Assembly: GCA_017528085.1 (NCBI GenBank)
Contig: JAFXPH010000007.1
Location: 11,285-75,284 of the forward strand
DNA from: Clostridia bacterium
Lineage (GTDB): Bacteria > Bacillota > Clostridia > TANB77 > CAG-508
Direction: 5' to 3'
DNA length: 64,000 bases
The notes beneath the pieces are model-generated. The model was not told the DNA's origin and made no database searches. It worked only from the letters and a program-made list of their open reading frames with translations. Positions 16,520 to 43,294 of this stretch are shown in pieces; position 1 is the stretch's first letter, and every line of letters starts with the position of its first letter. The position numbers were made by a program, and so were the translations under genes.

Positions 16520-16528
16520 GAGAATAAT

Positions 16529-23521: not shown

Positions 23522-23609
23522 CAAAAATAATTAAAAAAATAGAAAAAGAAAGTAGGCAATTTTGTCTACTTTTTTTGCATTTTTTTACATTACAATTGTG
23601 TTAAAAATA

Positions 23610-23638: not shown

Positions 23639-23681
23639 TATGTAAGAGAATCTATAATTAGGTGGAAAGGCGGAAAAATCC

Positions 23682-27707: not shown

Positions 27708-28958
27708 ATGTTTAAAAAATTCATTACAAAATTATTTATTTGTATTTTGTTATTTAATTTTATATTTTTAAACTCAGCTTATGTTCCACCTTCTTTTGCA
27801 AGAGAAGATAGCGAACCAACAAAAGAACAAAGAACTTATGCAGAAAATAAAGTTGAAGGCGTTGAAGGAAACACTATTTTTGCTAGTGCAGTTGGTGGCG
27901 AAGGAGATAATAACTCCTATGGTGGAGTTGTTACAACAGTTTTAGCATCAATCTTAGGAATAGTAACATTGTTATTTGATTTAATAGTATTCCAGGTTGA
28001 TATTGCAGCTGGTGTATTAAGTAATACGACAGAAGATATAGCTTCTGAAGGTGGAGGAAGCAGTGAAAAACTAAATTTTTTCTTAACAATAGAGAGAATA
28101 GTTTTCAATAGAATTCCAATCTTTAATGCAAATTATTTTGATACTGAAGATGAATATAAAGTTGGAGAAATAACATTAACATCTTCAAAGTTGGTTAATG
28201 CGATTAAAGAAAATGTTGCAACAGTATATGGATTTACAAGAATTTTAGCAATAGCAGTTGCACTTCTAATGTTAATTTATATTGGTATTAGAATGGCAAT
28301 GTCTACAATTTCAGCAGATCAAGCAAAATATAAGAAAATGTTTATATCATGGGTTGAAAGTATTGTTGTATTATTCTTACTAACATACATAATGGTAGCT
28401 ATTATTACATTTGGTGAGATACTTACTGGAATATTCTCAGATTTAAATAATCAAGTTTCAAAAATGGTTGATGAAACTGGAGCAGAGGTTACTTACAAAG
28501 TTGAAGAAGAGTTAAGACTAGATGTAATAAGAGTTGGATTAAAATCACTAGGTGTAACATTGGTTGCATATTCAATTATTTATTTGGCTTTATTATTCAT
28601 GATATTAAAATTTGGATGGCTATATTTAAAGAGATTCTTCTCAATAGGATTCTTGATTGTTATAGCTCCGCTTATTACAATTACATACTCAATGGATAAA
28701 GCAGGTGATGGTAAAGCACAAGCATTCTCAACATGGACAAGAGAATTCTTAGTTAATGTATTAATACAACCATTACATGCACTAATATATTTAGTATTTA
28801 TAGCATCATGTGCACAAATTGCAAGAGTTGCACCATTCTTATTCTTATTCTTCTTACTAAGTTTAGGAAAAGCAGAACAAATGGTTATGCAAGTATTCGA
28901 CTTAAAGAAGGGATTTGAACTTGGTGGACTAGATAAATTCTTTGGTGGAAAGAAGTAG
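27708..28958 (+). CDS. VirB6/TrbL-like polytopic membrane protein, paralog 1 (core only, no tail)
   Basis: Shares with the three larger paralogs the ecto-motif IVFNRIPIFNANYF, the hairpin GIRMAMSTISADQAKYKKM and the core motif APLITITYSMDKAGDGKAQAFSTWTREF..LIQPLHALIY. Confidence 0.6.
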   Translation: MFKKFITKLFICILLFNFIFLNSAYVPPSFAREDSEPTKEQRTYAENKVEGVEGNTIFASAVGGEGDNNSYGGVVTTVLASILGIVTLLFDLIVFQVDIAAGVLSNTTEDIASEGGGSSEKLNFFLTIERIVFNRIPIFNANYFDTEDEYKVGEITLTSSKLVNAIKENVATVYGFTRILAIAVALLMLIYIGIRMAMSTISADQAKYKKMFISWVESIVVLFLLTYIMVAIITFGEILTGIFSDLNNQVSKMVDETGAEVTYKVEEELRLDVIRVGLKSLGVTLVAYSIIYLALLFMILKFGWLYLKRFFSIGFLIVIAPLITITYSMDKAGDGKAQAFSTWTREFLVNVLIQPLHALIYLVFIASCAQIARVAPFLFLFFLLSLGKAEQMVMQVFDLKKGFELGGLDKFFGGKK

Positions 28959-28959
28959 T

Positions 28960-30213
28960 ATGAAAAAAAACAAAGATAATTCAATTGTTTTAAAAATATT
29001 TGTATTAGTAGCACTTATAGTTTTGATTTTAGTAATAATATTTTTAGGACATGAAAGAAATAGAATATTAAATGAAGAAAATGAAAATATGATTGCAGAG
29101 GAAACTGCTCCAAAAAAAGATTCTGATGAAGAAAAATCATCATATTTATGGATTTTGGAAAAGTATAATGTTAAGTATATAAGAACATTTTACAATAAAA
29201 TATATGTAGAATTTCCAAAGAATCTATATGAAACAGATGGCTCAAGTAATAAATCATATTTTTATGGAATAATTAGAGAAATGGCTGATTATTTTGATCA
29301 GTATTTCTACCTAATAGATGAAAAAAATAATATTGAAATTAGAGTAGTATTAAATAATGATGGTACTTTTAGAGTATTTATAAATGGTATAGAAAACTAT
29401 TATGATAGTTCATCAGGAAAAGATTATGCTGAAATAGAAAATCTTGAAATTGGTGAAAAGAGTAATATGGTACTTCATAGTGATATGTTTTTTACAATGA
29501 CTAGAGAAAAATTCTCTTATAAATCAGTAATAGAAGACTTAGGACCTAAAGATGCTATACCAAGTGAAGATGCAACAGATGAACAATCTATGGAAATAAA
29601 GAAAGCAATTGAACAAGGATATGAATCTTATCAAGGTGGGAAAGCATTAGTAAAACCATTTGGTAGATATAACTATTTTGCTGCAAATTTAGTATTAAAG
29701 AAAGGATCTAACGCACCAAGCTTTTTAAATGTAGAAGATCCATATGATTTAAGACAAGTTGCAGAAAAATATACTGATTACATGGATGGAAGCCCTGAAA
29801 GAGGATTTTTACTATTTAGAACAAATAGAAATTATATCTTCTTCTATAGAGATGAAATATCAATTTATCCATACTATTACTCATTAAACGATACATTTGA
29901 AGAAGCAGTAGAAGGATATACTATGAAAGGTATGGACTTTAGAAATTTTGCATCTTTAATATCAGTAGATTGTAAGACAAGTACAGAATTTGATTTAGAT
30001 TATGAAAATAAAACATTTCATGCAGTATATCCATGCTGCGGATTTGAAATTGATGTTGATGATAATGTAGGAAGATGTAATATAACTATTTACAAAAACT
30101 ACTATGTATCAAATAAAATAAAAGAACTTGCGAAAGCAGGAAAAGTTACAGTAAATTCTAACGTTGATTTACTACAAAAAACAGAAGAAGAAAGACGAGC
30201 TTCAAATAGATAA
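28960..30213 (+). CDS. N-terminally membrane-anchored ectodomain protein (paralog A)
   Basis: The ATG at 28960 lies 1 nt after the upstream stop. It has one TM. The segment NIEIRVVLNNDGTFRVFINGIENYY matches DITVEVKCVNRRISKIIINGLEDYF in the next gene. Confidence 0.5.
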   Translation: MKKNKDNSIVLKIFVLVALIVLILVIIFLGHERNRILNEENENMIAEETAPKKDSDEEKSSYLWILEKYNVKYIRTFYNKIYVEFPKNLYETDGSSNKSYFYGIIREMADYFDQYFYLIDEKNNIEIRVVLNNDGTFRVFINGIENYYDSSSGKDYAEIENLEIGEKSNMVLHSDMFFTMTREKFSYKSVIEDLGPKDAIPSEDATDEQSMEIKKAIEQGYESYQGGKALVKPFGRYNYFAANLVLKKGSNAPSFLNVEDPYDLRQVAEKYTDYMDGSPERGFLLFRTNRNYIFFYRDEISIYPYYYSLNDTFEEAVEGYTMKGMDFRNFASLISVDCKTSTEFDLDYENKTFHAVYPCCGFEIDVDDNVGRCNITIYKNYYVSNKIKELAKAGKVTVNSNVDLLQKTEEERRASNR

Positions 30214-30242
30214 CTATAAAGATTTTGAAGAAAGGATTGCTC

Positions 30243-31766
30243 ATGTCATTAGAACAACTAAAGACTAACAAAATATTTTGGATTACTTCAATAGTAGCTT
30301 TAATCTTAGCCATAATAATAATAAAAATAGCTATGAGTTCAATAACTCCAAAACCTGTTGATGAAGATGGAACAAATCTTTCAGTTCAATCAAGAAGATT
30401 TAAAACAATGAAAGAGTTACTAGAGTACTATGGTTGTACATATATATCTGAAAATATAGCTATGACATTAGAAGGTGAAAAAGAGTTATATTTAAAATTT
30501 AATGTAGATTTATATGCAAATGGCAAGAGCAATGAAGAATTCTTCATGTCACTAATACAGGATGTAGCAAACTTCTATGGCTATTATTCATTTAATATGT
30601 ATGATGCAGATAGAGACATTACTGTTGAAGTTAAATGTGTTAATAGAAGAATTAGTAAGATAATAATAAATGGACTAGAGGATTATTTTAGAAACAGAGA
30701 TGCTATGTTAGCTGAAGGAAAATATGTAGAGTATCCAACAACAACAATGGCTGTAAATTCACAATTATTACAAAGATTGATTGATAACAATTGGTCTAGT
30801 GATGCAGTAGGATTTGGATCTAAAGAGTCTATTTATAACAAATACGATGTATATTATGATGAGGGCATTAAGGTAAGAATTGAAAATGGAAAGGTATATA
30901 ATATAGTCTTTACAGAAAAATACGGTGGAGAGGTTGTTGATGGTATAGTACCAGGAACAGGTATGTCTACTGTAAGAGCAACTATTGGTACACCAGCATT
31001 TGAAGATGGACCAGTAGGTGTAATAGGATACAAGACAAAGAAATATTATGTGTTCTTTTCAGAGAATGAGATATCTGTTTATAGAGTATACGACGCAAGT
31101 ATGGTAGATTTTATAGCTCTATATAGAGATTTTAAAAATGATAATATTGACTTACTAGAATTAATGAACAAACTTACAGAAAAGTGGCCTGATTATGATG
31201 TATATGATTATACTTCTAATTCAGTATTTATATCTTATCCGCTTCAAGGTTTAGATATAAAGATTAATTATGATAATCAAAGAGGAATATTATTCTATAA
31301 TAATTTTAATTATTCAAGGGACACTGTAATGTCTATGGTAGATGCTGATGAAGACTTAGTATCAAAATTAGGTATTGATGGTGTATTTGAAGGAGAAAAA
31401 AGAAGAATTAATACTCTTAAAGATTTGAATAAAAAAGCTGATGAATTTGAAAAAAATTTAGCTATAACAAGCAATTTATATAAATTATACATAGAGAAAG
31501 ACTATGCTGATGTAGGCATAAAAGCATATTTTATTTCTAAAGATGGCTCATTACCAAACAGAGAATTGAATGATACAATTTCTACATTTACTTGGATTAA
31601 TGATACATATTTTGTTTATTCAAAATATGGAAGAGGAATCTACTTATATGATGTATCAAATGGTAGAACTCAAGCTTTAGTTGAAGGTAAACAAGCATTT
31701 GAAATTAAATCATTTGAAAACAAGATACTAAAATATGATGATGATGAAGTCAATTTAGAATTCTAG
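30243..31766 (+). CDS. N-terminally membrane-anchored ectodomain protein (paralog B)
   Basis: I chose the ATG at 30243 (RBS gaaagga) over the listed TTG at 30225. It has one TM and shares its N-domain with 28960..30213. Confidence 0.5.
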   Translation: MSLEQLKTNKIFWITSIVALILAIIIIKIAMSSITPKPVDEDGTNLSVQSRRFKTMKELLEYYGCTYISENIAMTLEGEKELYLKFNVDLYANGKSNEEFFMSLIQDVANFYGYYSFNMYDADRDITVEVKCVNRRISKIIINGLEDYFRNRDAMLAEGKYVEYPTTTMAVNSQLLQRLIDNNWSSDAVGFGSKESIYNKYDVYYDEGIKVRIENGKVYNIVFTEKYGGEVVDGIVPGTGMSTVRATIGTPAFEDGPVGVIGYKTKKYYVFFSENEISVYRVYDASMVDFIALYRDFKNDNIDLLELMNKLTEKWPDYDVYDYTSNSVFISYPLQGLDIKINYDNQRGILFYNNFNYSRDTVMSMVDADEDLVSKLGIDGVFEGEKRRINTLKDLNKKADEFEKNLAITSNLYKLYIEKDYADVGIKAYFISKDGSLPNRELNDTISTFTWINDTYFVYSKYGRGIYLYDVSNGRTQALVEGKQAFEIKSFENKILKYDDDEVNLEF

Positions 31767-31778
31767 AAAGGTATTAAT

Positions 31779-34700
31779 ATGAAGAGATCTACATTAAAGA
31801 AATTAAAAAGAGTAATTGTGATTTCAATTATTCTCATAGGTTTAATTTATTTAATAGCAGGACCAATTTCATCTGCAGCAGAGCTTCCTAAAAAAGGAGA
31901 GTTTTATTATGCAGGTACATCAAAAGGTTCATATGTTGCAACTGAAAACATATTTAAGTGGCTATTTAATATATTAGCAGAAATAATTCAGTTTATATTC
32001 CAATTAATATTATTCATAATAAGAATGATATTCGTAGGTTGGGCTGCATTAATATCTGAGGCTTTGACAGGAACATTTACAGCAATTACTGGTGTTAAGT
32101 ATGATCCATCTGATGTTGATCAATCTAACATCAATGTTATCAATGTTCAAGATAATATAACAGTTGAAGCTATTGTATTTAACAAAATCCCAATATTTGA
32201 TGTTGATTTCTTTAATTTTGATGAAATGGATCCTGTAACATATACAGATGCTGACAGAAAAGATGCAGGAAAAGCAATTAAAACACCTACAGGTAAAGAC
32301 TTATCAGATATGAGATGTTCAACATGTCAACGTGTTGAATCTATTGGACCACACACTTTTAAACAAGATAAAGAAAAGGGAATATGTGTTTGTAAGGTCG
32401 AAGAGTGTACTTGTAAAGCTTGCGAAACAAGAAGAAACTTGATGGAACCACATGATGAATTTAACCCGATGCAATTGATAAAGACAAACGTAGCTGAATG
32501 GTACTATACAATTAGGTTAATGGCTTTGGTTGGAATGCTTTTAGCATTAGGAGCAATTGGTATTAAAATGGCAATTTCAACTGTGGCATCAGATAAAGCA
32601 CAATATCAGCAAATGCTATCATCATGGGTAGTAGGAATTATATTATTATTTGGTATTCATTACTACATGATTTTAATGATAAATATAAACAATATTTTGA
32701 TTGATACAGTTGTTAATTATTCATCAGAGACATCAAAAGATATTGCTGAAGCAACTGTAAGTGATTTTGGAGTTTCAGCTTCACAATCAGACATGGAAAT
32801 TAATTTATATGAACAAGCAAGAACAAGAGCATACGATCCAAACTTATTAAATGGATTAACAGGTACAATACTTTATTGTACATTAGTATATTTCTCAGTA
32901 AGATTTGCTATTGTATACTTCAAGAGGTATTTTACTATAATGATTTTAGTACTTATGGCTCCTGGTGTTGCACTTACATATGCAATACAAAAAGCATTTT
33001 CAGGTAGAAGTCATACATTATCATTATGGTTACAAGAGTTCTGCGTAAATATTATTATTCAATCAGTTCACGCATTAATTTATGCAGCCTTCTTATCAAC
33101 TGCACTTAGAATTGCGTTTGATTCATTACCAGGAAGTATTTTTGCATTTATTATATTAAACTTTATGCTTAAGGCACTACCAATATTCAGAAAGATATTC
33201 AAAATGAGTAGTGATGGCGGACTATTAGATGATGCTATGAAAGCAGGTAGCCCTGAAAGATTAAAAGCAATGAAAGATTCAGCTGTTGGTGCAGCGTTAG
33301 CAGCTAAACCGTTAGCAAAATCATTTGCTAAATTACCAGGAACAAAAGCTGTAGTAGGATTAGTGAAATCTCCTGTAACAATTGGTGTTGAAGCTCATAG
33401 ACAATCACAGATGAAAAAGTTTGCAAAAGAGCATAATGAAAAAGTAGATCAAGCTAAATTAGATTTAAAAGATATATTTGCTCAAAACACAAAGACTTAT
33501 GGTGAAGGAACAGATGAAGAATTAGCAGAAAGAGCAAATAATGGAAGCTCTGAAGAAATAAGACAACAAGCGTATAAACAATTAAAAGAAAGAAGAGATG
33601 CTATTTCAATGAGAGCAATACAAGGGCTTCCATTAAGTAGTATTAAAACAGATACAAAAGAAGAAGAGACAAATGAAACAGAAGAGACAAATGAAACAGA
33701 GACTAATAAACAAGATCAACTAAATGCTAACTATTCTGCAGTTGGTATGGCAGGAGCTTCAGAAGCTCAAATATTAGAAGCTGCAAGACAAGACTTCTTA
33801 AATAGACATAGCGAAAATGCTCCTAAGGTTAAGCCAGAAAGTATTGTATCTGTAAGTGCTAAGAACTTTGCTAGAAATTTAGGTATGATGGCTGATTTTA
33901 GAAATAAATATGACATTATTTATGATAAAGATATGCATGCTCATTTCAAGAAGAGACATATACCAAAGACACAATATAATAAAAATACTGGAAGATATGA
34001 AGAGACAAGTGCTCATAAACAAATGAGAGAATTATACTCATTAAGGACTGCCTTAGGTGCTTCACCAGAAGAAATGAAAGCACTAAAAACATTCTTGAAA
34101 GATACAACAATTGGTTCATTATCATTCTTTACATGTATAGCTGGTATGGGTACAGTGGTTGCACATCCAAAGATTGGACTTGCCCTATTAGCTACAGGTA
34201 GCCAATATGTTAAATTGTATTCCCAAAATAAGACAATTAGAGGGGTTAATAAAAAGAGAAAAAATAAGGCTTATGCATTTTATGATTATTCTCCTGGAGC
34301 AACATTGGCAATGGGAAAAATAGGTTCTGTTGAAGCATCAATTGTAAGAAGAGAATTTGAGACTTTTATTCAAAAAAATGAAACTAAATCTTTAAGAGAT
34401 GTTGATTTAAAATATAATCTTGGAGCAGTTAGTTCTTCAATGTATGCTGCAGAAGGACAAGAAGGTGGAGAATATGCAACTCAATATTTAAATAGAAAAT
34501 TAAGTGAATTATCTCCAGAAGAACAAATGAATTTATTCCTTAAAACGGACTTTGCAAAGACATTGGAAGCTAGTGATATAGAAGCTGCAAAAGAAGGAGC
34601 TCAAAGAGATTTCTCTGAGGTTCTTGAAAAAGATTACCATGGAAAAATAGAAGAATTCTTTAAAGCTATGAATCAGGCAGAAAAACCAGATGAAATGCCA

Positions 34701-36329
34701 GCTACACTTAAATTTGCAGACAAACATTTTGGAACAATGGCTAAAGGATTAGATGCTATTTTTGAAGCAGAGGCAAAAACAGCAAAACAAGCACAAGATG
34801 CTTTTGTTGAAGATGCTCTACTTATTGCTACAATGCAAACAGCTAGTGAATTCAGAAAGCGAATAGAGGAAATCAAAGAAGACGAACAGAAAAAATATGA
34901 TGAACATGAGAGAAAACTTCTATTTGAACCAGATGAAGAAAATGGTTTAGATCAAAAAGAGGCAGAGGCAAGAGAAAGAGCAATAAAAGGATTCTTTGGT
35001 ATTTCAGTTGCTGTAGGTGATGAAGAAATAGTAATGGATGATCCTGTTATAGATGAAAGAAAGATAGTTAGACAAGCGGTATTATCTACAGTGGGATCAA
35101 AAGATGATATAGCAAGATTAGTAAAAAATTCAGGTAATATCGGTGACGTTAAAGGTAAAGCAGTAAGTGAAATAAAGAATAGATTAAAAGATATGGGCTT
35201 AACAGAAGATAGCCCAGAAGCTAAGAGATTATATCAAGAATTAAATAGTAGAGTTGAACAAGAGATTAAGACTGTTATTGAACAAGCTCAAGCTTCAGGA
35301 ATTGGTAAAAAACCAACAGAAGCACCTGAAAAAGGAAAAGCTGTTGAACCTTTATTATCAGAAGTTCCTGAACAATTTAATGACGAACAATTTATCAAAG
35401 ATTTTAAAGATCCTGAAAAAGCAGATTCAAGACCAAAGGTTAAGATTACTGAATTTGAGAAAAAACAATTAAAAGATTCTTTAACAAAGACCATAAAAGA
35501 TGAAATTCAAGCTGATAGTAAAAAGACTTTTGGGGAAGCTATTACTCAAGAGGATGTAAAAGCAAAGATATTAGAACAATATGTTAAGAAAACAAGAGGA
35601 GAAAATGTTAAGGTTGAGAGTTTAACTGAATCACAAAAAGCTTTTGCAGAAGCTCAAGTTGATCAATTCTTAGCTGATGTTACTGAAAAATCTAAAGATA
35701 CTACTAGACAACAAGGAGTACCTGAACCAAAAGCGGAACAAACAGTAACTCCTAACGCAGGAATTGGAAATCCAGATGCTGGACCTGAACCAGTTCAAGC
35801 AAAACGTTCTCCAGTACAAGTTACTTTAAAAACAAGGGTAGATAGAAAACCTGAAGATGTTAAAAAGAGAATGGAAGATATTTCAGAAGGATTAACTAAG
35901 GCAGCTATGGCTAAACCAGAAGATAAACAAAAAGTTGAACAATCAATAATCGATATCTTTAAACAAGGAGAGGAAACTGAAGATCCTGCATTAATAAGAA
36001 ATCAAACTCAAGCAGCGTTAGATGCGATGATTTTAAACGCTCAATTACAAAAGTTAAATTTAGCAACAGCAAGATTTGAAACATCAAGAAATTTGGAACC
36101 AATATCTGTAAAAGGTGACGCAATGAAATCAAAAGAGAAAAAAGAAGCAAGAAAAGCTATGTCATTCTTAGAAGAAATTAGTAAAGAAGAAAACAAAGAA
36201 CTAAGAGATAGGGTTCCAAAGGAAGAGATTAAGAAAAAAGAAGAATTATATGACGAAGCTAGACTTGGTTATACAGCAAATATAGTAGGTATGATAGAGG
36301 CCTCTTTAGGCAAAAAAGAGAAGAAATAG
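31779..36329 (+). CDS. Giant VirB6/TrbL-like protein, paralog 2 (1516 aa; ~480-aa membrane core plus ~1000-aa charged tail)
   Basis: Motifs IVFNKIPIFDVDFFNF, GIKMAISTVASDKAQYQQM and MAPGVALTYAIQKAF...WLQEF..IIQSVHALIY. A Cys-rich insert spans aa 180-215. The tail is K/E/A/Q-rich with no TM. Confidence 0.6.
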   Translation: MKRSTLKKLKRVIVISIILIGLIYLIAGPISSAAELPKKGEFYYAGTSKGSYVATENIFKWLFNILAEIIQFIFQLILFIIRMIFVGWAALISEALTGTFTAITGVKYDPSDVDQSNINVINVQDNITVEAIVFNKIPIFDVDFFNFDEMDPVTYTDADRKDAGKAIKTPTGKDLSDMRCSTCQRVESIGPHTFKQDKEKGICVCKVEECTCKACETRRNLMEPHDEFNPMQLIKTNVAEWYYTIRLMALVGMLLALGAIGIKMAISTVASDKAQYQQMLSSWVVGIILLFGIHYYMILMININNILIDTVVNYSSETSKDIAEATVSDFGVSASQSDMEINLYEQARTRAYDPNLLNGLTGTILYCTLVYFSVRFAIVYFKRYFTIMILVLMAPGVALTYAIQKAFSGRSHTLSLWLQEFCVNIIIQSVHALIYAAFLSTALRIAFDSLPGSIFAFIILNFMLKALPIFRKIFKMSSDGGLLDDAMKAGSPERLKAMKDSAVGAALAAKPLAKSFAKLPGTKAVVGLVKSPVTIGVEAHRQSQMKKFAKEHNEKVDQAKLDLKDIFAQNTKTYGEGTDEELAERANNGSSEEIRQQAYKQLKERRDAISMRAIQGLPLSSIKTDTKEEETNETEETNETETNKQDQLNANYSAVGMAGASEAQILEAARQDFLNRHSENAPKVKPESIVSVSAKNFARNLGMMADFRNKYDIIYDKDMHAHFKKRHIPKTQYNKNTGRYEETSAHKQMRELYSLRTALGASPEEMKALKTFLKDTTIGSLSFFTCIAGMGTVVAHPKIGLALLATGSQYVKLYSQNKTIRGVNKKRKNKAYAFYDYSPGATLAMGKIGSVEASIVRREFETFIQKNETKSLRDVDLKYNLGAVSSSMYAAEGQEGGEYATQYLNRKLSELSPEEQMNLFLKTDFAKTLEASDIEAAKEGAQRDFSEVLEKDYHGKIEEFFKAMNQAEKPDEMPATLKFADKHFGTMAKGLDAIFEAEAKTAKQAQDAFVEDALLIATMQTASEFRKRIEEIKEDEQKKYDEHERKLLFEPDEENGLDQKEAEARERAIKGFFGISVAVGDEEIVMDDPVIDERKIVRQAVLSTVGSKDDIARLVKNSGNIGDVKGKAVSEIKNRLKDMGLTEDSPEAKRLYQELNSRVEQEIKTVIEQAQASGIGKKPTEAPEKGKAVEPLLSEVPEQFNDEQFIKDFKDPEKADSRPKVKITEFEKKQLKDSLTKTIKDEIQADSKKTFGEAITQEDVKAKILEQYVKKTRGENVKVESLTESQKAFAEAQVDQFLADVTEKSKDTTRQQGVPEPKAEQTVTPNAGIGNPDAGPEPVQAKRSPVQVTLKTRVDRKPEDVKKRMEDISEGLTKAAMAKPEDKQKVEQSIIDIFKQGEETEDPALIRNQTQAALDAMILNAQLQKLNLATARFETSRNLEPISVKGDAMKSKEKKEARKAMSFLEEISKEENKELRDRVPKEEIKKKEELYDEARLGYTANIVGMIEASLGKKEKK

Positions 36330-36342
36330 AAAGGAATTGGAC

Positions 36343-39000
36343 ATGAGACTAAAAAAGAAAAAGATACTTGTTAGTATTTTAATAGTTATTTTATTATTAA
36401 GTACAATTTTTAGTGTTCGATCTATAGGTGCTACATTAGGAGAAGCCTTAACGGATATTCTTGGAACATTCGTAGGTATTCTAACATGGCCTGTAAGAAT
36501 CATTGCACTTGGAATTGCATACTTAATGGATAGAATTACAAGTTCAATTGCATATTTAGATGGAGGAACAAGTACACCTGGTAAGTTCTTTACACCATAT
36601 GAAATCTTATTTAATAAGATACGTATTACAGATATAGATTTCTTTAATTTTCAAGGACTTTCAGAAGATTGTGCAACATACAAAATTAGAGAAGCTGTAG
36701 CTCAATGGTACTATTTTACTAGAATGATAGCTATAGCAGCTTCATTAGTAGTATTAGCTTATGTTGGTGTTAGAATGTCTCTTTCTACAATGGCACAAGA
36801 TAAAGCTAAATACAAAAAAATGTTGGTAGATTGGGCATCAAGTGTTGCTTTAATATTCCTACTTCATTACATTATTATATTTATTTTAGCAGTAAATACA
36901 GCTTTGGTTAATGCAATAGGAGGAACTGCAGGTGCAAAAGGTGATGAAATATCTGATCAAATAGGTGGAATTGCAAATGCATCTTTAGGTATTTCTGTTT
37001 ATGCCATAGGCGCTACTATAGTATTTACATTATTAGTAAAACAAACATTAGGTTTGCTACTTGCTTATATCAATCGTATGATTAAGTTAGCTTTCCTATT
37101 AATAATTGCCCCATTAATTACAATTACTTATTCAATAGATAAGATGGGTGATAATAAAGCACAAGCATTAAATGCATGGTTAAAAGAGTTTGTATATACA
37201 ATTCTTTTACAACCATTTCACTGTATTATATACATGTCTTTAATAGATATAGCTTATAGTTTATTGGCAGAATCATCTGTTGAGGATGAAGGTTCTTTAG
37301 CTGCATGTATATTGGCATATTTATTCATAAAATTCTTAACAGAAGCAGAAAAATTAGTTAGAAAGATATTCGGATTTAAAGATACAGATACAGGTACTAC
37401 TTTAGGTAGTGGTATGGCTGCTGCCGGTGCTACATTAGCGCTTTCTAAAAACATAGGTAGTACAGTTGGTAAAGGTGTTAGATTTGCAAAAGGAGCTTTA
37501 CCAGGAGCTATGGCAGCTGCAGGTAAAGCAGCAGATAAAGCTTCAAATGCTCTTGGAGCAGCTGCAACTAATGTTAGAGCAGCTAGTAGAGCAATAGGAA
37601 AGAAAGACCTTGTCGATGAAAAATTAGGTATTAATTCTGGTGAAAAGGCTTCAGGTAATGTATTCAGTAGAATGAAACAACAAAAAGAAGCATTGAATGC
37701 AGCAAGACAAGCATATAAAAACGCTGATGCAACAGGCAAAGAAAGAATTAAGTATACAAGAAAAACAGCTAGAGAAGGTGAGAAGACAGATAAAGCTTAT
37801 AATGCAGGTAAGGTACTTACTGCAAAGCAAATGGCTGAAAATAGAAAGACTAGAGCTGCAGATATGAGAAGCGAAAAATTCCAAGAAACTGCACAAAAAG
37901 AAGCTGAAAAAACAGTTAAGCAAAAACAAGAGAGAAAAGAAAATAGTAGAGTTAGAAAAAGCTTTAGAAAAGCAAGAGGAGTTGTTCGAAAGGTTAATGG
38001 TGTTGCTTCTAAGATAGTAAACAACGAGTTGACAAGAACAGCATTAAAAGGTGGTGTAGCTACTTTTGTTGGTTCTTGGAGTTCTGATAAATCAATGGCT
38101 GCAGCTATAACAGCAGGTGTTGCTGGATGGAAAGTAACAGATGAAGCACTTAAATATACAGGTGGACAAGTTAAGAGTGATCTTAATGAGAAATATGCTG
38201 CTGCAGGAATTACAAGTGCAGAAAAAGCTATGGAGTTGTACGATGAAAATGATGAACACTCATATGCTGAACGAGTTAAAGATGGAAAGGCAGATTTAAG
38301 AGAACAAGGAAAAGCTGATAGAGAAGCAAATGAAAATAGCTTAAGTGAAAGTGAAGTTAATAGAGTTTTAGGAGAGATGTCTAGACAATTAGCTACTAAT
38401 GCTAGTGCATCATTACAATCAATATTAGATAAAGCATTAGGCGATAGCCAAAATAAAATGTCACAAGCTTTTGAACAAAAATTAAAAGAACTATATAATA
38501 ATCAAAAGAATGCTAATGCAGTATCATCTATGAGTAATGCATTCCAATTAGGATTCTCTGAAAGAATGGTATTTGGTACAGCTGATAGAGAGAGTACACA
38601 TATATCTTCTGCATTTACTCCTAAGGATCCAGATGCTGTTGATGATAAATACAAATTTGAATCTGGTGCTGAACCAGATTCAGCAGACACAGGAGGACCT
38701 GATATACCAAGCCCTGAAGAAATGCAAGAAGAAATTAATAATAGAGTAAACGATATGATGAGAGACATTAATGAACAACCTACACAAGTACAAGAAGTAG
38801 TTGAAAAAAGAATTACTGAAATCAAGAGATCATTTGATACTTCAAAACCAGATCATTCAATACAAGAATTAGATGCAATAATAAATAAATTAGCGGGAAA
38901 CAATAGCCCAGAGGCTGAGGCTATAAGACAAAAGGCTACAGCTGCTAAAGCAGATTTAGAAAAGCAAGTTAGGGAAAACTCAGGAGGAGAAAACAAATAA
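36343..39000 (+). CDS. VirB6/TrbL-like protein, paralog 3 (core plus ~500-aa tail)
   Basis: I preferred the ATG at 36343 (RBS aaagga) to the listed TTG at 36337. Motifs ILFNKIRITDIDFFNF, GVRMSLSTMAQDKAKYKKM and APLITITYSIDKMGDNKAQALNAWLKEF..LLQPFHCIIY. Confidence 0.6.
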   Translation: MRLKKKKILVSILIVILLLSTIFSVRSIGATLGEALTDILGTFVGILTWPVRIIALGIAYLMDRITSSIAYLDGGTSTPGKFFTPYEILFNKIRITDIDFFNFQGLSEDCATYKIREAVAQWYYFTRMIAIAASLVVLAYVGVRMSLSTMAQDKAKYKKMLVDWASSVALIFLLHYIIIFILAVNTALVNAIGGTAGAKGDEISDQIGGIANASLGISVYAIGATIVFTLLVKQTLGLLLAYINRMIKLAFLLIIAPLITITYSIDKMGDNKAQALNAWLKEFVYTILLQPFHCIIYMSLIDIAYSLLAESSVEDEGSLAACILAYLFIKFLTEAEKLVRKIFGFKDTDTGTTLGSGMAAAGATLALSKNIGSTVGKGVRFAKGALPGAMAAAGKAADKASNALGAAATNVRAASRAIGKKDLVDEKLGINSGEKASGNVFSRMKQQKEALNAARQAYKNADATGKERIKYTRKTAREGEKTDKAYNAGKVLTAKQMAENRKTRAADMRSEKFQETAQKEAEKTVKQKQERKENSRVRKSFRKARGVVRKVNGVASKIVNNELTRTALKGGVATFVGSWSSDKSMAAAITAGVAGWKVTDEALKYTGGQVKSDLNEKYAAAGITSAEKAMELYDENDEHSYAERVKDGKADLREQGKADREANENSLSESEVNRVLGEMSRQLATNASASLQSILDKALGDSQNKMSQAFEQKLKELYNNQKNANAVSSMSNAFQLGFSERMVFGTADRESTHISSAFTPKDPDAVDDKYKFESGAEPDSADTGGPDIPSPEEMQEEINNRVNDMMRDINEQPTQVQEVVEKRITEIKRSFDTSKPDHSIQELDAIINKLAGNNSPEAEAIRQKATAAKADLEKQVRENSGGENK

Positions 39001-39012
39001 AAAGCTTAAAGA

Positions 39013-41625
39013 ATGACTAGAAAGGGAAAAAGTATGCTAAAAGTTTCTAAAAAACTAATTGCAAGTTTATTTGTAATTATAGTAGTTTTTAATTTCATAG
39101 GATCAACATACCTTAACTATTCATATGCTGCTGCTGAAGATGTAGACTTAGAAGATGTTGTAACGGTTATAACTAACGTTATGGGAGGAATAGTATCAAT
39201 AGCTATGTGGCCTTTAAGACTTAAGGTTACAATGGTTGCTATTGTTATTAATGTTATAGAAGCTACTGTTGCTACTATGGATAATACCGGTGGAACAACG
39301 AAATTCTTTATTACTCCATATGATATTTTCTTTAATAAAATTCCACTATTAGACATTGATATTTTTGATACATCAGGAACGGGAGTTTTAAGTGAGATAA
39401 GAGGAAAAGTTGCCGAGTGGTACTATGCAATGAGATTAGTAAGTGTTGCAGCTTTAGTCGCTGTATTAGGTTACATTGGTATTCAAATGGCTATTTCTAC
39501 TATGGCAGATGATAAAGCAAAATATAAGAGAATGCTAGTAGACTGGGTAGCCAGTGTAGCAATATTATTCTTATTACACTATATTATGATTTTTATCATA
39601 ATGGTTAATAGTGCGCTGGTTAATGCAATAGACTCATTTGTTACAAGCTCAACAATGGCTGGTTATGATGACCAAACAATACAAGATGCTTTCTCAAGTA
39701 TGGCAATGAAAGCACTTGTAGGCATTGGTATGGATTCATTGACAGCAACAATAGTATTTGCGTTATTGGTGTTCCAAACAGCAGGATTTATAGTTTCATA
39801 CTTAAACCGTATGATTAAAGCTTGTTTCTTGGTAATAATTGCACCATTAATAACAATTACTTATTCAATAGATAAGATTAAAGATCAAAAATCACAAGCA
39901 TTGGATGGATGGCTTAAAGAGTATGCATACACAATACTTATTCAACCATTCCATTGTATAATATATGCTACTTTTATATCTATAACATATAAATTGATAG
40001 GAGATCCATCTGAGTTATTACCATTTGATGATATTAAAAAGATAGTAAGCCCAGATTACAACCAATTAGTAGCAGGTTTATTTGCAATATTTGCATGTAC
40101 ATTTATATATACTGCTGAGAAACTAGTTAGAAAAATATTTAACATTAGTGACGATGCAAGTAAAACATCTATGGCTGCCGGTGTTGCAGTTTCAGTTGCT
40201 GCGGTTGCAAATGCTAAAAAACTTGGAGCTAAAACAAAGGCTGGTTTAAATATGGCTTCTGAAGCAACTAAGAAATTTGGAGAACATGCAAAAGCTTTAG
40301 GACAAAAGGTAGATAATTTATCACAAAAAGATAACGCACTTGGCTCAGCTATAAGAGGAGCAAAAGGTGCAGCAGGAAAGGTATCAAATAGTAAGTTAGG
40401 ACAAGGTGTTAAAAAAGCTTCAGGTGCAGTAAAAAAAGGTGTTGGACGAGTTAAAGCATCAGATAAGTATAAGAAATTCGCATCTGGAATGGATAGATTA
40501 ACTGCAGGAGTTAATAATGTATTAAAAGCTCCTAAAAGTTTAAATGATAAATTGGCAGGTATAGCATCAAATGAAAAAAATTCAAAAACTAAAAGATTTT
40601 TTGCTAATATAGGATCAAGAGCTTTAGCAAAAGCAAGATCATCAGGTAGAACAGGAAATGTAGCTAAGTGGTTGACTACTTCAGCTATGTTAGCAGCAGG
40701 CAAAGGACCTTTAGAAGCATATGGTGCTGCTTCTGGAATAGGCGAAGGTGTAGACTCACTTATGTCATATACAACAGGTGAAATTTCAAAAGGTGCTGCT
40801 GACTTGAAAGGAGCTTTTGAAGGATTACCAGATAATGAAACTGTTTCAAATTTAAAGAGTACACTAAGTTCATTAGAAAGTTTAAAAGAAACAGCTGATA
40901 AAACAAGTGCTGAAGCTGCGAACTTACAAAATAATGCTGATAATATTCAAAAACAAATGGATAAAGTAGAGAGACAAATGAATACGGCTGGAAATCCAAC
41001 TCAAAGAGCAGATTTACAAAATCAGTATAGTAGTTTATCTAAAAAGAGAGATGGATATTTAGAAGAGTTAGATAAAAAGAAAAAAGATCTGCAAGCTGCT
41101 CAACAGAATTTGGCAAATGCATTAGGTAAAGATAAATATAATGAAGATGATTATAATAAAAAACATAAAGAACTAGAAGAAAATATTGTTCAAGAACAAG
41201 CAAGCCAATATGCTGATTACTTTGACCAAATACAAAGTGAAGGAAAAGCAGGAAGATTTGCTAATGGAGTAAGTCAGATAGAAAAATCAAGGGAAAGAAG
41301 AGTTCTTGAATTATCAGTAAAAAATGAGTTAAAAGAATTAGATGCTGATGATCAATCTAGAGATGTAATTAATCAAATTTATAGTATGGCATCTGCTGGA
41401 ATGAGTACAAGTGATATCACTTCAGCTATTCAAGGTCAAATTCAATCAATAGTAGCAGCAAGATCAGGAAAAGTAGATTTTTCTCGTTTGATATCAGCTG
41501 TTCAAGAATTAGGAAAATTCGAAGAGCAAGCAAACTTGTATAACTCAATAAGTTCTGCTAGTTCAGTTAACTTGTCAAATTATAGGCTTGCAGAAGCAGT
41601 AGCTAGAAGACAAATGGAATCATAA
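39013..41625 (+). CDS. VirB6/TrbL-like protein, paralog 4 (core plus ~500-aa tail)
   Basis: The alternative start at ATG 39034 is possible. Motifs IFFNKIPLLDIDIF, GIQMAISTMADDKAKYKRM and APLITITYSIDKIKDQKSQALDGWLKEY..LIQPFHCIIY. Confidence 0.6.
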   Translation: MTRKGKSMLKVSKKLIASLFVIIVVFNFIGSTYLNYSYAAAEDVDLEDVVTVITNVMGGIVSIAMWPLRLKVTMVAIVINVIEATVATMDNTGGTTKFFITPYDIFFNKIPLLDIDIFDTSGTGVLSEIRGKVAEWYYAMRLVSVAALVAVLGYIGIQMAISTMADDKAKYKRMLVDWVASVAILFLLHYIMIFIIMVNSALVNAIDSFVTSSTMAGYDDQTIQDAFSSMAMKALVGIGMDSLTATIVFALLVFQTAGFIVSYLNRMIKACFLVIIAPLITITYSIDKIKDQKSQALDGWLKEYAYTILIQPFHCIIYATFISITYKLIGDPSELLPFDDIKKIVSPDYNQLVAGLFAIFACTFIYTAEKLVRKIFNISDDASKTSMAAGVAVSVAAVANAKKLGAKTKAGLNMASEATKKFGEHAKALGQKVDNLSQKDNALGSAIRGAKGAAGKVSNSKLGQGVKKASGAVKKGVGRVKASDKYKKFASGMDRLTAGVNNVLKAPKSLNDKLAGIASNEKNSKTKRFFANIGSRALAKARSSGRTGNVAKWLTTSAMLAAGKGPLEAYGAASGIGEGVDSLMSYTTGEISKGAADLKGAFEGLPDNETVSNLKSTLSSLESLKETADKTSAEAANLQNNADNIQKQMDKVERQMNTAGNPTQRADLQNQYSSLSKKRDGYLEELDKKKKDLQAAQQNLANALGKDKYNEDDYNKKHKELEENIVQEQASQYADYFDQIQSEGKAGRFANGVSQIEKSRERRVLELSVKNELKELDADDQSRDVINQIYSMASAGMSTSDITSAIQGQIQSIVAARSGKVDFSRLISAVQELGKFEEQANLYNSISSASSVNLSNYRLAEAVARRQMES

Positions 41626-41671: not shown

Positions 41672-42187
41672 ATGTCTAGGAACCAAAAATTAATATTGGT
41701 GGTTTCATTAGCAGTTATAGTTCTTGTATTTATTATCAATGGAGTAATTGATAATAGAAACAGAAGACAATTTGATACTGATGAAACTATGTCAGAAGAA
41801 GAGGCTGCTAATCTATTAGCCAAAAAAAATGAAGCTATTGAAGTAAATGTAGCAAAGGGAAAAAATGAAAGAGAAAGAATAGAATACTATGCTCAAAAAT
41901 TCTTTAAAAGTATAGCTACTAAAGATTATGAAGACGCTTATAATGTTTTAAATGGAGCATATAAAGAAAGATATTTCCCAACATTACAAAGCTTTATTGA
42001 CTATTGTGAAGTGTATTTCCCAGGAACTTTGGGAGTTAAATATACTAATATAGAAAGAAATGGAACAACATATGTAATATGGGTTACTATTTCTAATTCA
42101 ACAGGATATTCAAAATCAACAATTGAAAAACAAGTTGTAGTAAAAGAAAATGGTCTAAATGATTATGAAATATCATTTAGTAAATAG
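41672..42187 (+). CDS. Small membrane-anchored ectodomain protein (possible VirB8/TcpC-type NTF2-like module)
   Basis: RBS aaggag and one TM. The segment ERIEYYAQKFFKSIATKDYEDAYNVL resembles the opening helix of NTF2-like lipoprotein domains. The functional call is inference only. Confidence 0.35.
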   Translation: MSRNQKLILVVSLAVIVLVFIINGVIDNRNRRQFDTDETMSEEEAANLLAKKNEAIEVNVAKGKNERERIEYYAQKFFKSIATKDYEDAYNVLNGAYKERYFPTLQSFIDYCEVYFPGTLGVKYTNIERNGTTYVIWVTISNSTGYSKSTIEKQVVVKENGLNDYEISFSK

Positions 42188-42206: not shown

Positions 42207-43172
42207 ATGAATTTTACCGATTTAAGATTAAAAATCCAAAGATTTTTTAGAAGAACTAGGTATATATTTCTAGTAGCAATTATTGGTTTAGCTATATTAG
42301 TAACTTTAAATACAATAGTAAAATATAGACCACAACAAGTGGTTCCGGAGACTAATTTAGATACAAGAGCATCAGTAATGGATCCTAATGTTAAAACACC
42401 GACTCAAGTATCATCTTCAATTGAAGAATTGATATCAATTTATATGGGATATTGTAATAAGAACGACTTTTCTTCAGCATTTGATATGCTATCAGAAAAG
42501 TGCCAACAATATATGTTTCACAATGATATAAACGAATATTTACAATATATGTACACTATTATGCCAACACCAAAAGAATATACAATTCAAAATTATTCAG
42601 ATTTAACAGTTAATGGTAAGACATACTATGTATATCAATTAAAATATTTTGATAACTTAATTGAAACAGGATTAACAAATACAACATATGCATATACAAC
42701 TGAAAAAATCACTTTTGTAAGAGAAGGTGAAGGAAGTTTACAAATGAATGTTGGAAACTTTGTAGATTTTGAAGATATAAAGAGACTTACAGAAGGTGAA
42801 TATTTAAAAATAGATGTTTTAACATCTTTAGTTCAATATAGTACAATTACTTATGAAGTTAAATTTACAAATAGAACTGACAATTATATAGTTATTTCTG
42901 ATAGTAATGAAGATGAAGAGATAACAATTACTTTAAATGAAGAAACAAGACATCCAGTTGAAAGACCAGATATTATATTAGAGCCACATGAATCAAAAAC
43001 TGTAAGTATACAATTTACAAAATTCTTTGATGACTCTGATCCTGTAACTGCTATTTCATTCCCAAATATTAGAGTAATGACTAAGTATTCAGGAAATGAA
43101 GCTGGTGAAGAAGTAATAAGAGAAGAGATAAATAATGCAGAAGCAAAATTAGGTATGTCAGTTGGATTATAA
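42207..43172 (+). CDS. Membrane-anchored ectodomain protein (possible VirB8/TcpC-type)
   Basis: RBS aaaggag and one TM. The opening helix IEELISIYMGYCNKNDFSSAFDML is similar to that of the previous gene; the rest is beta-rich. Confidence 0.35.
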   Translation: MNFTDLRLKIQRFFRRTRYIFLVAIIGLAILVTLNTIVKYRPQQVVPETNLDTRASVMDPNVKTPTQVSSSIEELISIYMGYCNKNDFSSAFDMLSEKCQQYMFHNDINEYLQYMYTIMPTPKEYTIQNYSDLTVNGKTYYVYQLKYFDNLIETGLTNTTYAYTTEKITFVREGEGSLQMNVGNFVDFEDIKRLTEGEYLKIDVLTSLVQYSTITYEVKFTNRTDNYIVISDSNEDEEITITLNEETRHPVERPDIILEPHESKTVSIQFTKFFDDSDPVTAISFPNIRVMTKYSGNEAGEEVIREEINNAEAKLGMSVGL

Positions 43173-43230: not shown

Positions 43231-43294
43231 GATAGACTTTATATTAAAAATGATATAAAATATATTTGTAAAAATGGATGAAAGGAGTGAAATT

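Follow-up and report, generated by a model that had tools for sequence, protein, structure and literature searches.

Organization of the cluster and its four polytopic proteins

In the 64 kb of DNA from a Clostridia bacterium analyzed here (contig JAFXPH010000007.1; the whole stretch is hereafter called the window), a cluster of co-directional genes resembling a type IV secretion system (T4SS) lies between the genes for tRNA-Met (19896-19971) and tRNA-Cys/Gly (46327-46495). The window has a GC content of ~30%, and nearly all of its genes are on the + strand. The cluster runs from eight pilin genes through a VirB3-like gene, a TrsD-like gene and the gene of a VirB4-type ATPase to the first of four polytopic proteins, which is followed by two bitopic genes and then by the other three polytopic proteins. 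From the VirB3-like gene through the last polytopic gene, neighboring genes overlap or are separated by gaps of at most 15 nt. The four polytopic proteins, numbered here as paralogs 1-4 and assigned to three types as described below, are the main subject of this study and have the following features:

27708-28958, + strand: paralog 1, type-1 VirB6-like protein, 416 amino acids (aa), core alone and tail-less; pilin-like hairpin at ~28179-28457, APLITITYS...QPLH block at 28665-28790
31779-36329, + strand: paralog 2, type-2 giant VirB6-like protein, 1516 aa, core of ~residues 1-477 and then a hydrophilic tail of ~1040 aa; pilin-like hairpin at ~32454-32720, diverged APGVALTYA...QSVH block at 32958-33083, Cys-rich insert at 32310-32435
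36337-39000, + strand: paralog 3, type-3 VirB6-like protein, 887 aa, core of ~residues 1-348 and then a tail of ~540 aa; pilin-like hairpin at ~36661-36924, APLITITYS...QPFH block at 37108-37233
39013-41625, + strand: paralog 4, apparent later duplicate of type 3, 870 aa, core of ~residues 1-379 and then a tail of ~490 aa; pilin-like hairpin at ~39379-39639, APLITITYS...QPFH block at 39841-39966

The four open reading frames (ORFs) of 416, 1516, 887 and 870 aa on the + strand have exactly the coordinates given in a preceding reading made from the letters of the DNA (the sequence-only reading). The paralogy claimed there is far beyond chance, with BLASTP over the N-terminal core giving E values of 1e-35 to 1e-104 for all pairs. 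Paralogs 3 and 4 form the closest pair (42-46% identity, E 1e-102 to 1e-104); paralog 1 shares 32-34% identity with paralogs 2, 3 and 4 (E 1e-35 to 1e-48), and paralog 2 shares 28-32% identity with paralogs 3 and 4 (E 1e-36 to 1e-42). In a MAFFT alignment, the N-terminal 350-480 residues align throughout and define a common polytopic core of ~350-400 aa, in which all of the previously listed motifs were found. The motif at the end of the ectodomain, [IL][VFL]FN[KR]IP..., reads RIVFNRIPIFNANYF, AIVFNKIPIFDVDFF, EILFNKIRITDIDFF and DIFFNKIPLLDIDIF in the paralogs, the R-I-T variant being that of paralog 3. The WYY of paralogs 2-4 is replaced by VYG in paralog 1. The block APLITITYSxDK...W.KE[FY]...QP[FL]H..IY occurs in all four proteins, in the giant paralog 2 in the diverged form APGVALTYAIQK...IQSVHALIY, and the motif residues invariant in the core family are P321, T326, Y327, W343, E346, Q354 and H357.

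The topology outlined by the sequence-only reading was reproduced by hydropathy analysis, which predicted an N-terminal signal/transmembrane (TM) segment and ~6-7 further hydrophobic helices per core, and the AlphaFold models described below show the same order of helices. Each core is composed of a signal peptide, a small ectodomain ending in FN[KR]IP, a two-helix hairpin and four more long hydrophobic helices, in which the APLITITYS and QPxH motifs are found. Paralogs 2-4 continue into hydrophilic tails, rich in Ala, Lys, Glu and Gly, that show no detectable similarity to one another. These tails are predicted to be cytoplasmic, because they are Lys-rich and follow a K/R-rich membrane exit (KLVRKIF), a placement favored by the positive-inside rule.

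Two side observations concern individual paralogs. Residues 178-219 of paralog 2 (32310-32435) form a Cys-rich ectodomain insert, MRCSTCQRVESIGPHTFKQDKEKGICVCKVEECTCKACETRR, with 7 Cys between the FN[KR]IP motif and the pilin-like hairpin; it was not found by a crude regular expression in 14 parsable type-2 orthologues and may be a knot of the metal-binding or disulfide kind. Two antisense ORFs, 37254-37739 (- strand, 161 aa) and 40056-40703 (- strand, 215 aa), lie within the Ala/Gly/Lys-rich tails of paralogs 3 and 4 and were rejected as genes; their translations are of low complexity and rich in Ala, Pro and Phe, and they are most likely artefacts of composition.

The paralogs are probably diverged VirB6-type subunits

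The four proteins are probably diverged VirB6-type platform/channel subunits of a chromosomally fixed, non-conjugative T4SS pilus machine in a monoderm host. This reading is based on the gene context, on matches of AlphaFold models to TrwI, on a pilin-homologous hairpin in the core, and on sub-threshold matches to membrane-protein families of Mycoplasma integrative and conjugative elements (ICEs). As to the VirB6/TrbL-like identity claimed by the sequence-only reading, the operon position, the polytopic character and the resemblance of the fold to TrwI speak for it, whereas a match to a TrbL or VirB6 profile is lacking. The genes stand where a VirB6 gene is expected, directly downstream of those for the VirB3-like, TrsD-like and VirB4 proteins, and each product has at least five hydrophobic helices (~7-8 segments per core). 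Like extended VirB6 proteins (RvhB6 of Rickettsiales and the 700-900 aa ConG/TcpH/Orf15 type of the MPF-FA systems), paralogs 2, 3 and 4 consist of a core with a large hydrophilic tail, and paralog 1 is tail-less.

AlphaFold2 monomer models were built with family alignments for paralog 1 (mean predicted local distance difference test score 78.8, predicted TM-score 0.73) and for residues 1-412 of paralog 4 (81.2 and 0.76, respectively), and both were compared with 350,542 PDB chains by Foldseek. For paralog 1, TrwI/VirB6 chains of R388 took ranks 1-4 with weak scores (E 0.39-1.0, TM-score 0.39-0.41). For paralog 4, they took ranks 1-4 and 6, and the match to 8rt9_F had an E value of 0.026, a probability of 1.00, a target-normalized TM-score of 0.54 and a root-mean-square deviation of 6.3 Å over 302 columns; the TM-scores were 0.52 for 8rtd_L and 0.53 for 7o3v_F, and the ten best matches included five TrwI chains besides 8rt9_F. 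The superposition covers the whole paralog 4 core, beyond the hairpin (~300 aligned columns). TrwI/VirB6 was thus the top PDB match of two independently modelled paralogs, and these models support a VirB6 fold of the cores. Although the E values are not formally significant, we give the match weight because two paralogs that are only ~32% identical independently select TrwI from the whole PDB.

Several observations weigh against a VirB6 identity. The Foldseek E values never reach 0.001, the match of paralog 1 is weak, and all-helical membrane proteins can reach a TM-score of ~0.5 without homology. The profile search proposed in the sequence-only reading came out negative, no PF04610/TrbL_2/3, VirB6, PrgH or CD1112-type profile of Pfam or NCBIfam matching any of the four proteins (threshold E<=1) or any of 42 family members (threshold E<=0.1). 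None of 120 listed homologues carries a precomputed Pfam domain, whereas PrgH and TrwI relatives carry PF04610. When an alignment of 154 cores was compared by hhalign with the PrgH and TrwI families, E values of 0.15 and 0.26 were obtained, which are weak negatives, since the positive control of PrgH against TrwI also failed with these shallow alignments (E 0.4) and the test is therefore insensitive. A four-sequence alignment compared by hhalign with single PrgH and Tn916 Orf15 sequences found nothing, and a family profile run against all PDB chains found no solved VirB6, the tails matching low-complexity or coiled-coil chains and the core nothing. Short motif coincidences, APL...D[EK] with PrgH and QPxH with 'WQPTH' of TrwI, are not significant.

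Mycoplasma ICE membrane proteins, the other families for which a profile check had been proposed, gave consistent matches, but all of them below the curated cut-offs. NF045848 (MMCAP2_0566 family conjugal transfer protein) matched 35 of the 42 core-family members (best E 8e-7), and NF045889 (Mbov_0396 family ICE transmembrane protein) matched 26 (best E 4e-7). In the window, NF045889 matched residues 168-371 of paralog 1 (E 0.034), spanning the hairpin and the following helices, and NF045848 matched residues 236-400 of paralog 2 (E 9e-4) and also paralog 3 (E 1.5e-4). The window proteins scored 12-21 bits (E 1.5e-4 to 0.08) against cut-offs of 70 and 90 bits for NF045889 and NF045848, another point to be set against the VirB6 assignment. 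From these scores, the Mycoplasma families appear to be remote relatives of the core, which itself falls outside their curated membership. We take the Mbov_0396 family to be CDS16 of the Mycoplasma ICE, going by a locus tag adjacent to that of the VirB4 family (Mbov_0397). CDS16, an 8-TM protein beside VirB4, is a likely VirB6-like component (PMC12857230), so that the literature, too, calls a VirB6 role of the Mycoplasma protein no more than 'likely'.

The conserved hairpin is homologous to the neighboring pilins

The 'conserved TM hairpin' pointed out in the sequence-only reading is homologous to the pilins encoded nearby. When the hairpin columns of the 154 cores were aligned by hhalign with an alignment of mature pilins built from 265 collected sequences, a probability of 97.4 and an E value of 1.1e-11 were obtained over 83 columns, while the controls (reversed profiles, other hydrophobic regions of the same proteins, and the PrgH family) all gave E>=0.05. 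Pfam PF18895 (T4SS_pilin) also matched 29 of the 42 core-family members (best E 3e-5), and its match to residues 170-228 of paralog 1 (E 0.0024) is the only Pfam match, a weak one, among the four proteins. In paralog 1 the hairpin comprises residues 158-250, and its loop, S-T-x-A-x-D-K-A-K-Y-K-K, can be compared with the pilin loop A-A-P-S-D-K-A-E-I-K-K. A homology of this kind has been published for the N-terminal part of CedA and the CedA1 pilin and, more weakly, for VirB6 and VirB2 of A. tumefaciens (Beltran et al., PMC9905601), and we therefore count the hairpin as an additional VirB6-type trait. The homology found here lends unusually strong sequence support to a shared origin of VirB6 and VirB2 and to the templating of pili by VirB6.

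The same finding could be turned around, in that the paralogs would be giant pilin-derived proteins handled by the machine, namely minor or tip pilins, membrane-anchored adhesins, or substrates with exported tails. Their only highly significant homology is that to pilins, their signal peptides are like those of pilins, and their tails are long, fast-evolving and paralog-specific. The cluster, moreover, encodes no VirB5-like tip protein, which leaves that role vacant, and a parallel would be the extended VirB6 proteins of Rickettsiales, whose C-terminal extensions have been reported as surface-exposed or cleaved. We nevertheless judge this unlikely. Beyond the hairpin, the proteins have four more long hydrophobic helices with invariant motifs; the polytopic Mycoplasma families are matched over profile positions 50-260 of 306; it is the whole core that superposes on TrwI/VirB6; and the system would otherwise have no VirB6 component. 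The Lys-rich tails behind a K/R-rich membrane exit would also favor the cytoplasm over export. A pilin-homologous hairpin within a VirB6-type platform subunit is thus the interpretation that we retain.

Three ancient, position-specific paralog types

A scan with one genome per species yielded 209 stretches encoding the family, of which 80 loci were retrieved and serve as the sample for all locus counts given here. All 80 are from metagenome-assembled genomes of uncultured Clostridia from the guts of humans, chickens, rabbits, ruminants and mice. The carriers include Candidatus Scatovivens and Clostridium sp. CAG:793, and as Scatovivens is placed in family CAG-508 of the GTDB order TANB77 (PMC13106387), the carrier clade, the window with it, is probably this order. 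A word-indexed search gave 779 family matches, annotated as 'hypothetical' and free of Pfam domains among the matches listed, and an exhaustive search of representatives gave 3,186 clusters at 50% identity (E<=1e-30); with a profile of 800 positions that took in tail columns, the latter listed close relatives only and did not lead to any annotated family. The presence of the same syntenic cluster in at least 80 species-level genomes rules out an array peculiar to this genome. In the literature, we found no paper on this cluster; the published 'conserved pilin' cluster of TANB77 is a Tad/type IVc pilus at a different locus and is absent from the window (PMC11680825).

The loci have a common order of pilin array, VirB3-like gene, TrsD-like gene, VirB4 gene, short paralog, one or two bitopic genes, giant paralog and mid-size paralog, which is sometimes followed by one more copy and lastly by two distal bitopic genes. 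One polytopic gene copy was counted in 15 loci, two in 15, three in 35, four in 13 and six in 2, some of these counts being lowered by contig ends and others raised by frameshifts and weak pilin matches. In a neighbor-joining tree of the 154 cores, three position-specific orthogroups were resolved, with protein sizes of ~400 aa at the first position, 900-2200 aa at the second and 550-950 aa at the third, and the single-copy forms made up a separate clade. Paralog 1 falls in the orthogroup that is always first, paralog 2 in the one that is always second, and paralog 3 in the third-position orthogroup. Paralog 4 groups with the fourth copy of locus L067 and is, judging from its place in the tree, a later duplicate of type 3. 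This indicates that the three paralog types are ancient and position-specific, and that three per locus is the norm in a large uncultured clade.

Rates of evolution differ strongly inside this one operon. VirB4 is its most conserved gene, with 78-87% identity to the orthologues of related loci and 86-87% to the closest ones (L002-L044), and the identities between window and related loci are only 32-45% for the VirB6-like proteins, 31-74% for the pilins and 27-44% for the bitopic proteins (33-45% for the VirB6-like and 28-44% for the bitopic proteins in the comparison with L002-L044), so that a near-frozen motor is combined with fast-evolving envelope proteins.

Accompanying genes of the cluster

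The other genes of the cluster are as follows:

20156-24056, + strand: eight tandem VirB2-type pilin genes, recognized by PF18895 T4SS_pilin matches and a common architecture
20156-20545, 20776-21165, 21375-21746 and 21830-22201, + strand: pilins 1-4
22254-22634, 22737-23093, 23132-23521 and 23682-24056, + strand: pilins 5-8
24065-24400, + strand: candidate VirB3/PrgI-like small membrane protein, 111 aa, two adjacent hydrophobic helices, by position and topology
24403-25683, + strand: TrsD-like protein, one TM helix at the N-terminus and a domain like that of the VirB4 N-terminal part
25699-27696, + strand: VirB4-type ATPase, C-terminal motor part, by NCBIfam and Pfam matches
28942-30213 (423 aa) and 30225-31766 (513 aa), + strand: bitopic proteins located between paralogs 1 and 2, in both of which an N-terminal TM helix precedes a large extracytoplasmic domain
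41672-42187 (171 aa) and 42207-43172 (321 aa), + strand: distal bitopic proteins, one N-terminal TM helix each
43274-44764, + strand: cell-wall hydrolase with G5 (PF07501, E 1e-12) and N-acetylglucosaminidase (PF01832, E 2e-13) domains

Four of five scanned pilin genes reach the Pfam gathering score of PF18895 (E 1e-8 to 5e-6), and the fifth, 23132-23521, falls short of it (E 5e-5; 23.6 bits, with the cut-off at 26.6). All eight pilins align as a signal peptide followed by a two-helix hairpin, with pairwise identities of 19-88%; pilins 1 and 2 are 88% identical, with identical C-terminal halves, and the remaining ones share 19-54%. Terminator-like hairpins lie 3' of pilins 1, 2 and 7, and a promoter-like site 5' of pilin 8. 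Because of these terminator-like hairpins, several pilin genes look as if they were independently transcribed. The last pilin gene (23682-24056) is the only one kept directly upstream of the VirB3-like gene, in 56 related loci.

The VirB3-like gene is kept in 66 of the 80 loci with 66-73% identity; its product has no Pfam match and no significant hhalign match to PrgI, and the VirB3 role is proposed from its topology and its position directly upstream of the VirB4 genes. The TrsD-like protein, with one TM helix and kept in 70 of the 80 loci, aligns with positions 102-338 of the 894 in the NCBIfam profile VirB4_plasma, which belong to its N-terminal part (E 3.7e-5), and TrsD is remotely homologous to the VirB4 N-terminus (PMC12102498). 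VirB4 is thereby split into a membrane-anchored TrsD-like gene and an ATPase gene, a split kept in ~70 related loci that mirrors the TrsD-plus-VirB4 arrangement of pGO1-type and Patescibacteria systems. The ATPase matches the CD1110-family VirB4-like ATPase (E 5e-61) and the Mycoplasma VirB4 (E 1e-52) of NCBIfam, and TraG P-loop, DUF87 and AAA_10 of Pfam.

The two bitopic genes between paralogs 1 and 2 had been called unrelated in the sequence-only reading, which is true of their relation to the polytopic proteins but not of that to each other, as they are paralogs (E 5e-8). Neither has a Pfam or NCBIfam family assignment; the 513 aa protein has a relative in 48 of the 80 loci, and the 423 aa protein in 13. 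The genes of the distal 171 aa and 321 aa proteins have relatives in 46 and 48 loci, respectively, and the two families are related by hhalign. The bitopic proteins of the cluster, all four with an external domain behind an N-terminal TM helix, therefore make up two paralogous pairs without family assignment; naming them candidates for a VirB8-like scaffold would be a guess. The hhalign comparisons with PrgL (VirB8 role) and PrgJ (role of the VirB4 N-terminal part) were not significant, and the VirB3, VirB8 and VirB4 N-terminal roles are assigned here from position, topology and one NCBIfam match.

The wall hydrolase is a probable VirB1 analogue, a slot that is filled by unrelated enzymes in different loci: in place of the G5 plus glucosaminidase protein of the window, locus L025 has a phage-tail lysozyme and a GDSL lipase (15421-19440) downstream of the 171 aa/321 aa bitopic genes, and locus L066 has a C39-like peptidase (13108-16200) between these two genes. 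The remaining genes of the window are housekeeping genes (among them those for hydrogenase, NAD synthesis, LytR, PBP5, Hsp33, cardiolipin synthase and amylase). ORFs of 627, 288, 737 and 410 aa (14035-15918 on the - strand and 52283-56833 on the + strand) had no Pfam match at E<=1e-5, and the first of them is among the few minus-strand genes, in a segment of reversed GC skew.

No conjugation genes are linked to the cluster

The sequence-only reading had viewed the genes in the frame of ICEs and conjugation modules, a view that found no backing, because neither a relaxase, a type IV coupling protein (T4CP) nor an integrase is linked to the cluster in the window, and the 80 related loci are likewise devoid of them except for one integrase match in L042. 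Scans of the window ORFs with Pfam and NCBIfam gave no match to a relaxase, T4CP, integrase or excisionase over the whole 64 kb, and phmmer searches with the T4CP, relaxase and MobT of pCF10 and Tn916 as queries found nothing in the window and the 80 loci. That phmmer can detect distant T4SS proteins is indicated by the PrgJ query, which finds VirB4 in 49 of the 80 loci. Ten ORFs flanking the clusters of L025 and L066, scanned with profile libraries, also contained no relaxase, T4CP or integrase. This exclusion covers ~10-20 kb around the clusters and, for the 80 loci, is made by phmmer with single query sequences, a limit that counts against the non-conjugative part of our reading.

The cluster might still be the mating-pair-formation module of an ICE, with the four proteins as redundant VirB6 copies from a recent tandem amplification. 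Its VirB4 has its closest relatives in the CD1110/PrgJ family, which belongs to conjugation systems of Gram-positive bacteria, paralogs 3 and 4 look like a tandem duplicate, and the cluster is flanked by tRNA genes (tRNA-Met and tRNA-Cys/Gly), which are classical integration sites. Nevertheless, the absence of transfer and integration genes just described makes this highly improbable. In addition, att-like repeats sought at the tRNA borders gave no common repeat of at least 14 nt, the GC content and strand bias of the cluster are the same as those of its flanks, and the three paralog types are ancient and position-specific. A common chromosomal neighborhood points in the same direction, since the LytR-PBP5 neighborhood is common to the window and the distant complete genome of L025, with a PBP5-type gene also in L066.

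In detail, a LytR_cpsA_psr gene adjoins the gene of a PBP5-type D-Ala-D-Ala carboxypeptidase at 5702-8021 of the window, ~12 kb upstream of the cluster; this pair is also found upstream in the complete 1.8 Mb genome of L025 (754-3698), and L066 has the PBP5-type gene alone, downstream (18981-20231). This suggests that the chromosomal neighborhood of the cluster is conserved.

Proposed mechanism and output of the machine

In a T4SS, VirB6 is the component that serves the assembly of VirB2 pilins as membrane platform or channel. By analogy with R388 (PMC12624023, PMC12857230) and with a model of PrgF/PrgH (bioRxiv 10.64898/2025.12.18.695078), the VirB6-like subunits would oligomerize as a ring above the VirB3-like protein, the TrsD-like protein and the VirB4 motor. 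The pilin-like hairpins would form a docking or template layer, at which pilins extracted from the membrane could polymerize. The three ancient types may build one heteromeric platform or alternative platforms matched to different pilins, the extra type-3 copy (paralog 4) would act likewise, and the non-homologous tails may make different cytoplasmic contacts. We favor a division of labor over redundancy, because three ancient paralog types occur in a fixed order. The oligomeric state, the topology of the tails, the formation of a pilus and the substrate are all predictions here, which tempers the VirB6-type platform reading.

The likely output, judged from the gene content and the pattern of evolution, is a variable surface pilus for cell contact or adhesion, because there is no T4CP or relaxase, the array comprises eight variable pilin genes, and fast-evolving envelope parts are combined with a near-frozen motor. 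The Trw system of Bartonella follows this pattern as well (PMC2883598), and the T4SS of Patescibacteria, which is essential there, offers another parallel (PMC12102498, PMC12857230). Exchange of DNA or macromolecules, of the Ced or Patescibacteria kind, is possible, and self-transfer of a mobile element is not likely. Being chromosomal, equipped with eight pilin genes and without DNA conjugation genes nearby in the window and in related loci, the cluster is probably a cell-contact organelle and not a plasmid-transfer device.

A related proposal would keep the channel role, which would then be VirB6/CedA-like, and make the machine a Ced/Ted-like apparatus for DNA import or exchange, with the paralogs as import channel. 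Ced and Ted are chromosomal and combine a pilin of the VirB2 kind, a polytopic VirB6-like protein whose N-terminus is pilin-like, and a VirB4-like ATPase, with neither relaxase nor T4CP (PMC9905601), and the VirB4 of the window weakly matches CedB and CedD of NCBIfam (E 2e-6). The latter matches, however, amount to generic P-loop similarity (27 bits against cut-offs of 600-700), and the cluster, unlike Ted loci, is without recombination, repair and ParA-like genes. The eight-gene variable pilin array and the fast evolution of the envelope proteins fit recognition or adhesion better, as in the Trw system of Bartonella (PMC2883598), and we regard DNA import as an unlikely output.

A bolder formulation of the contact-pilus reading, which we offer as a tentative and rather doubtful one, is that a whole order of gut Clostridia, uncultured and with small genomes and probably TANB77, has a vertically inherited, relaxase-less T4SS with a heteromeric or switchable stalk of three anciently differentiated paralogs, whose pilin-mimicking hairpins would template different pilins of the variable array. 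If true, this would be a Gram-positive counterpart of the essential T4SS of Patescibacteria, and these bacteria would rely on pili for their contact with partner or host cells.

In monoderms, the recognition of VirB2-type pili and domesticated T4SSs is very recent, with the T4SS of Patescibacteria and PrgF of pCF10, and the cluster extends this picture to a large clade of uncultured gut Clostridia. Three ancient, position-fixed VirB6 paralogs, and four in this genome, are a feature unreported for monoderm systems. The family is large (~3,200 clusters at 50% identity) and has no Pfam model, and a profile would improve the detection of T4SSs in metagenomes. If the host clade is TANB77, which has been linked to the response to immunotherapy through another pilus, a second and highly variable surface organelle would be relevant to its interaction with hosts and microbes.

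Comparison with known systems

TrwI/VirB6 of R388 (PF04610; PDB 8RT9, 7O3V and 8RTD), the best structural match of both modelled paralogs, is likewise polytopic, helical and encoded together with VirB2, VirB3 and VirB4, and has a Q-P motif in a hydrophobic helix ('LLWQPTH' in its family, 'LIQPxH' here). It differs in being a single-copy protein of 342 aa that is encoded with VirB5, VirB7-VirB11 and a coupling protein and serves conjugation in diderms, and it has no significant sequence or profile similarity to the window proteins, which have an additional N-terminal ectodomain and, in three cases, tails of 500-1000 aa. TrwI (L083, 6127-7152) also ends in an Ala/Gly/Arg-rich basic tail, ...AGAAMRGGRALARGVKASPRAVGSAATGAANMAKTV..., whose composition is like that of the first ~100 residues after the core in paralogs 3 and 4 (37380-37700 and 40150-40500), a likeness of composition without alignment statistics.

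One of the three closest analogues, the others being Bartonella Trw and Rickettsiales rvh, is the T4SS of Patescibacteria (candidate phyla radiation), also monoderms, which combines VirB4, TrsD, PrgI/VirB3, VirB6 and an array of PF18895/VirB2-type pilins (2-11 divergent genes in tandem), is usually relaxase-less (PMC12102498; PMC12857230), and is a chromosomal system, widely conserved across an uncultured lineage with small genomes. This component set, as defined in PMC12102498, is complete in the window, which is relaxase-less as well. The differences are that the host here belongs to the Clostridia, that most VirB6 homologues of Patescibacteria match the VirB6 profile of mating-pair formation type T (MPF-T), which the window proteins do not, and that multi-paralog VirB6 arrays have not been reported there.

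Multiplied VirB6 genes are known from diderms. The sequence-only reading had cited the rvh system of Rickettsiales as the precedent for a feature foreign to Gram-positive conjugation modules; a multi-copy VirB6 array is indeed unusual for monoderm systems and VirB6 is multiplied in rvh, but the Trw system of Bartonella is a second precedent (PMC2883598). In Bartonella, the pilin gene trwL (5-8 copies) has been co-amplified with the VirB6 gene in trwJ-I-H repeats, which encode VirB5/6/7, and several TrwI paralogs per Bartonella chromosome were also seen in our analysis; the coupling protein TrwB has been lost, the surface components diversify fast, and the function has moved from transfer to host-specific adhesion by variant pili (PMC2883598). 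As in the window, there is no coupling protein and the surface components are fast-evolving. The Bartonella system is, however, a diderm MPF-T system recently acquired from an R388-like plasmid, and its VirB6 gene was repeated recently together with VirB5 and VirB7, in copies that have the normal size and are recognized by PF04610, whereas the paralog types described here are ancient, of different sizes and interrupted by bitopic genes. The rvh system shares with the cluster 4-5 ancient, differentiated VirB6 paralogs in tandem (RvhB6a-e; PMC2653234, PMC7648143), most of them with very large hydrophilic C-terminal extensions, and a VirB2 multiplied in Anaplasmataceae; it differs as an effector-translocating system of alphaproteobacterial diderms with VirD4 and with paralogs recognizable as TrbL/VirB6. 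This resemblance is convergent, with no evolutionary link to the monoderm family described here.

Among curated families, only those of the Mycoplasma ICE proteins (NF045889 and NF045848) show consistent similarity to the core, covering the hairpin and the following helices, and these proteins are encoded beside VirB4 and a 'pilin-like' family (NF045849); in contrast to the window proteins, they are single-copy and ~300 aa long, and belong to a true ICE of wall-less bacteria, which includes a T4CP (CDS5). CedA and TedA are alike in being polytopic VirB6-like proteins whose N-terminal region is homologous to the cognate VirB2-like pilin, in domesticated chromosomal T4SSs without relaxase or T4CP (PMC9905601), a likeness taken from their description, and differ as single-copy archaeal proteins that have 6-7 TM helices and lack long tails. 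Taken together, the multiplication of VirB6 (Rickettsiales and Bartonella) and relaxase-less pilin arrays with TrsD, VirB3, VirB4 and VirB6 (Patescibacteria) are already known; what is new here is their combination in Clostridia, the three paralog types fixed clade-wide, a family outside all curated profiles, and a clear homology between VirB6-like and VirB2-type proteins.

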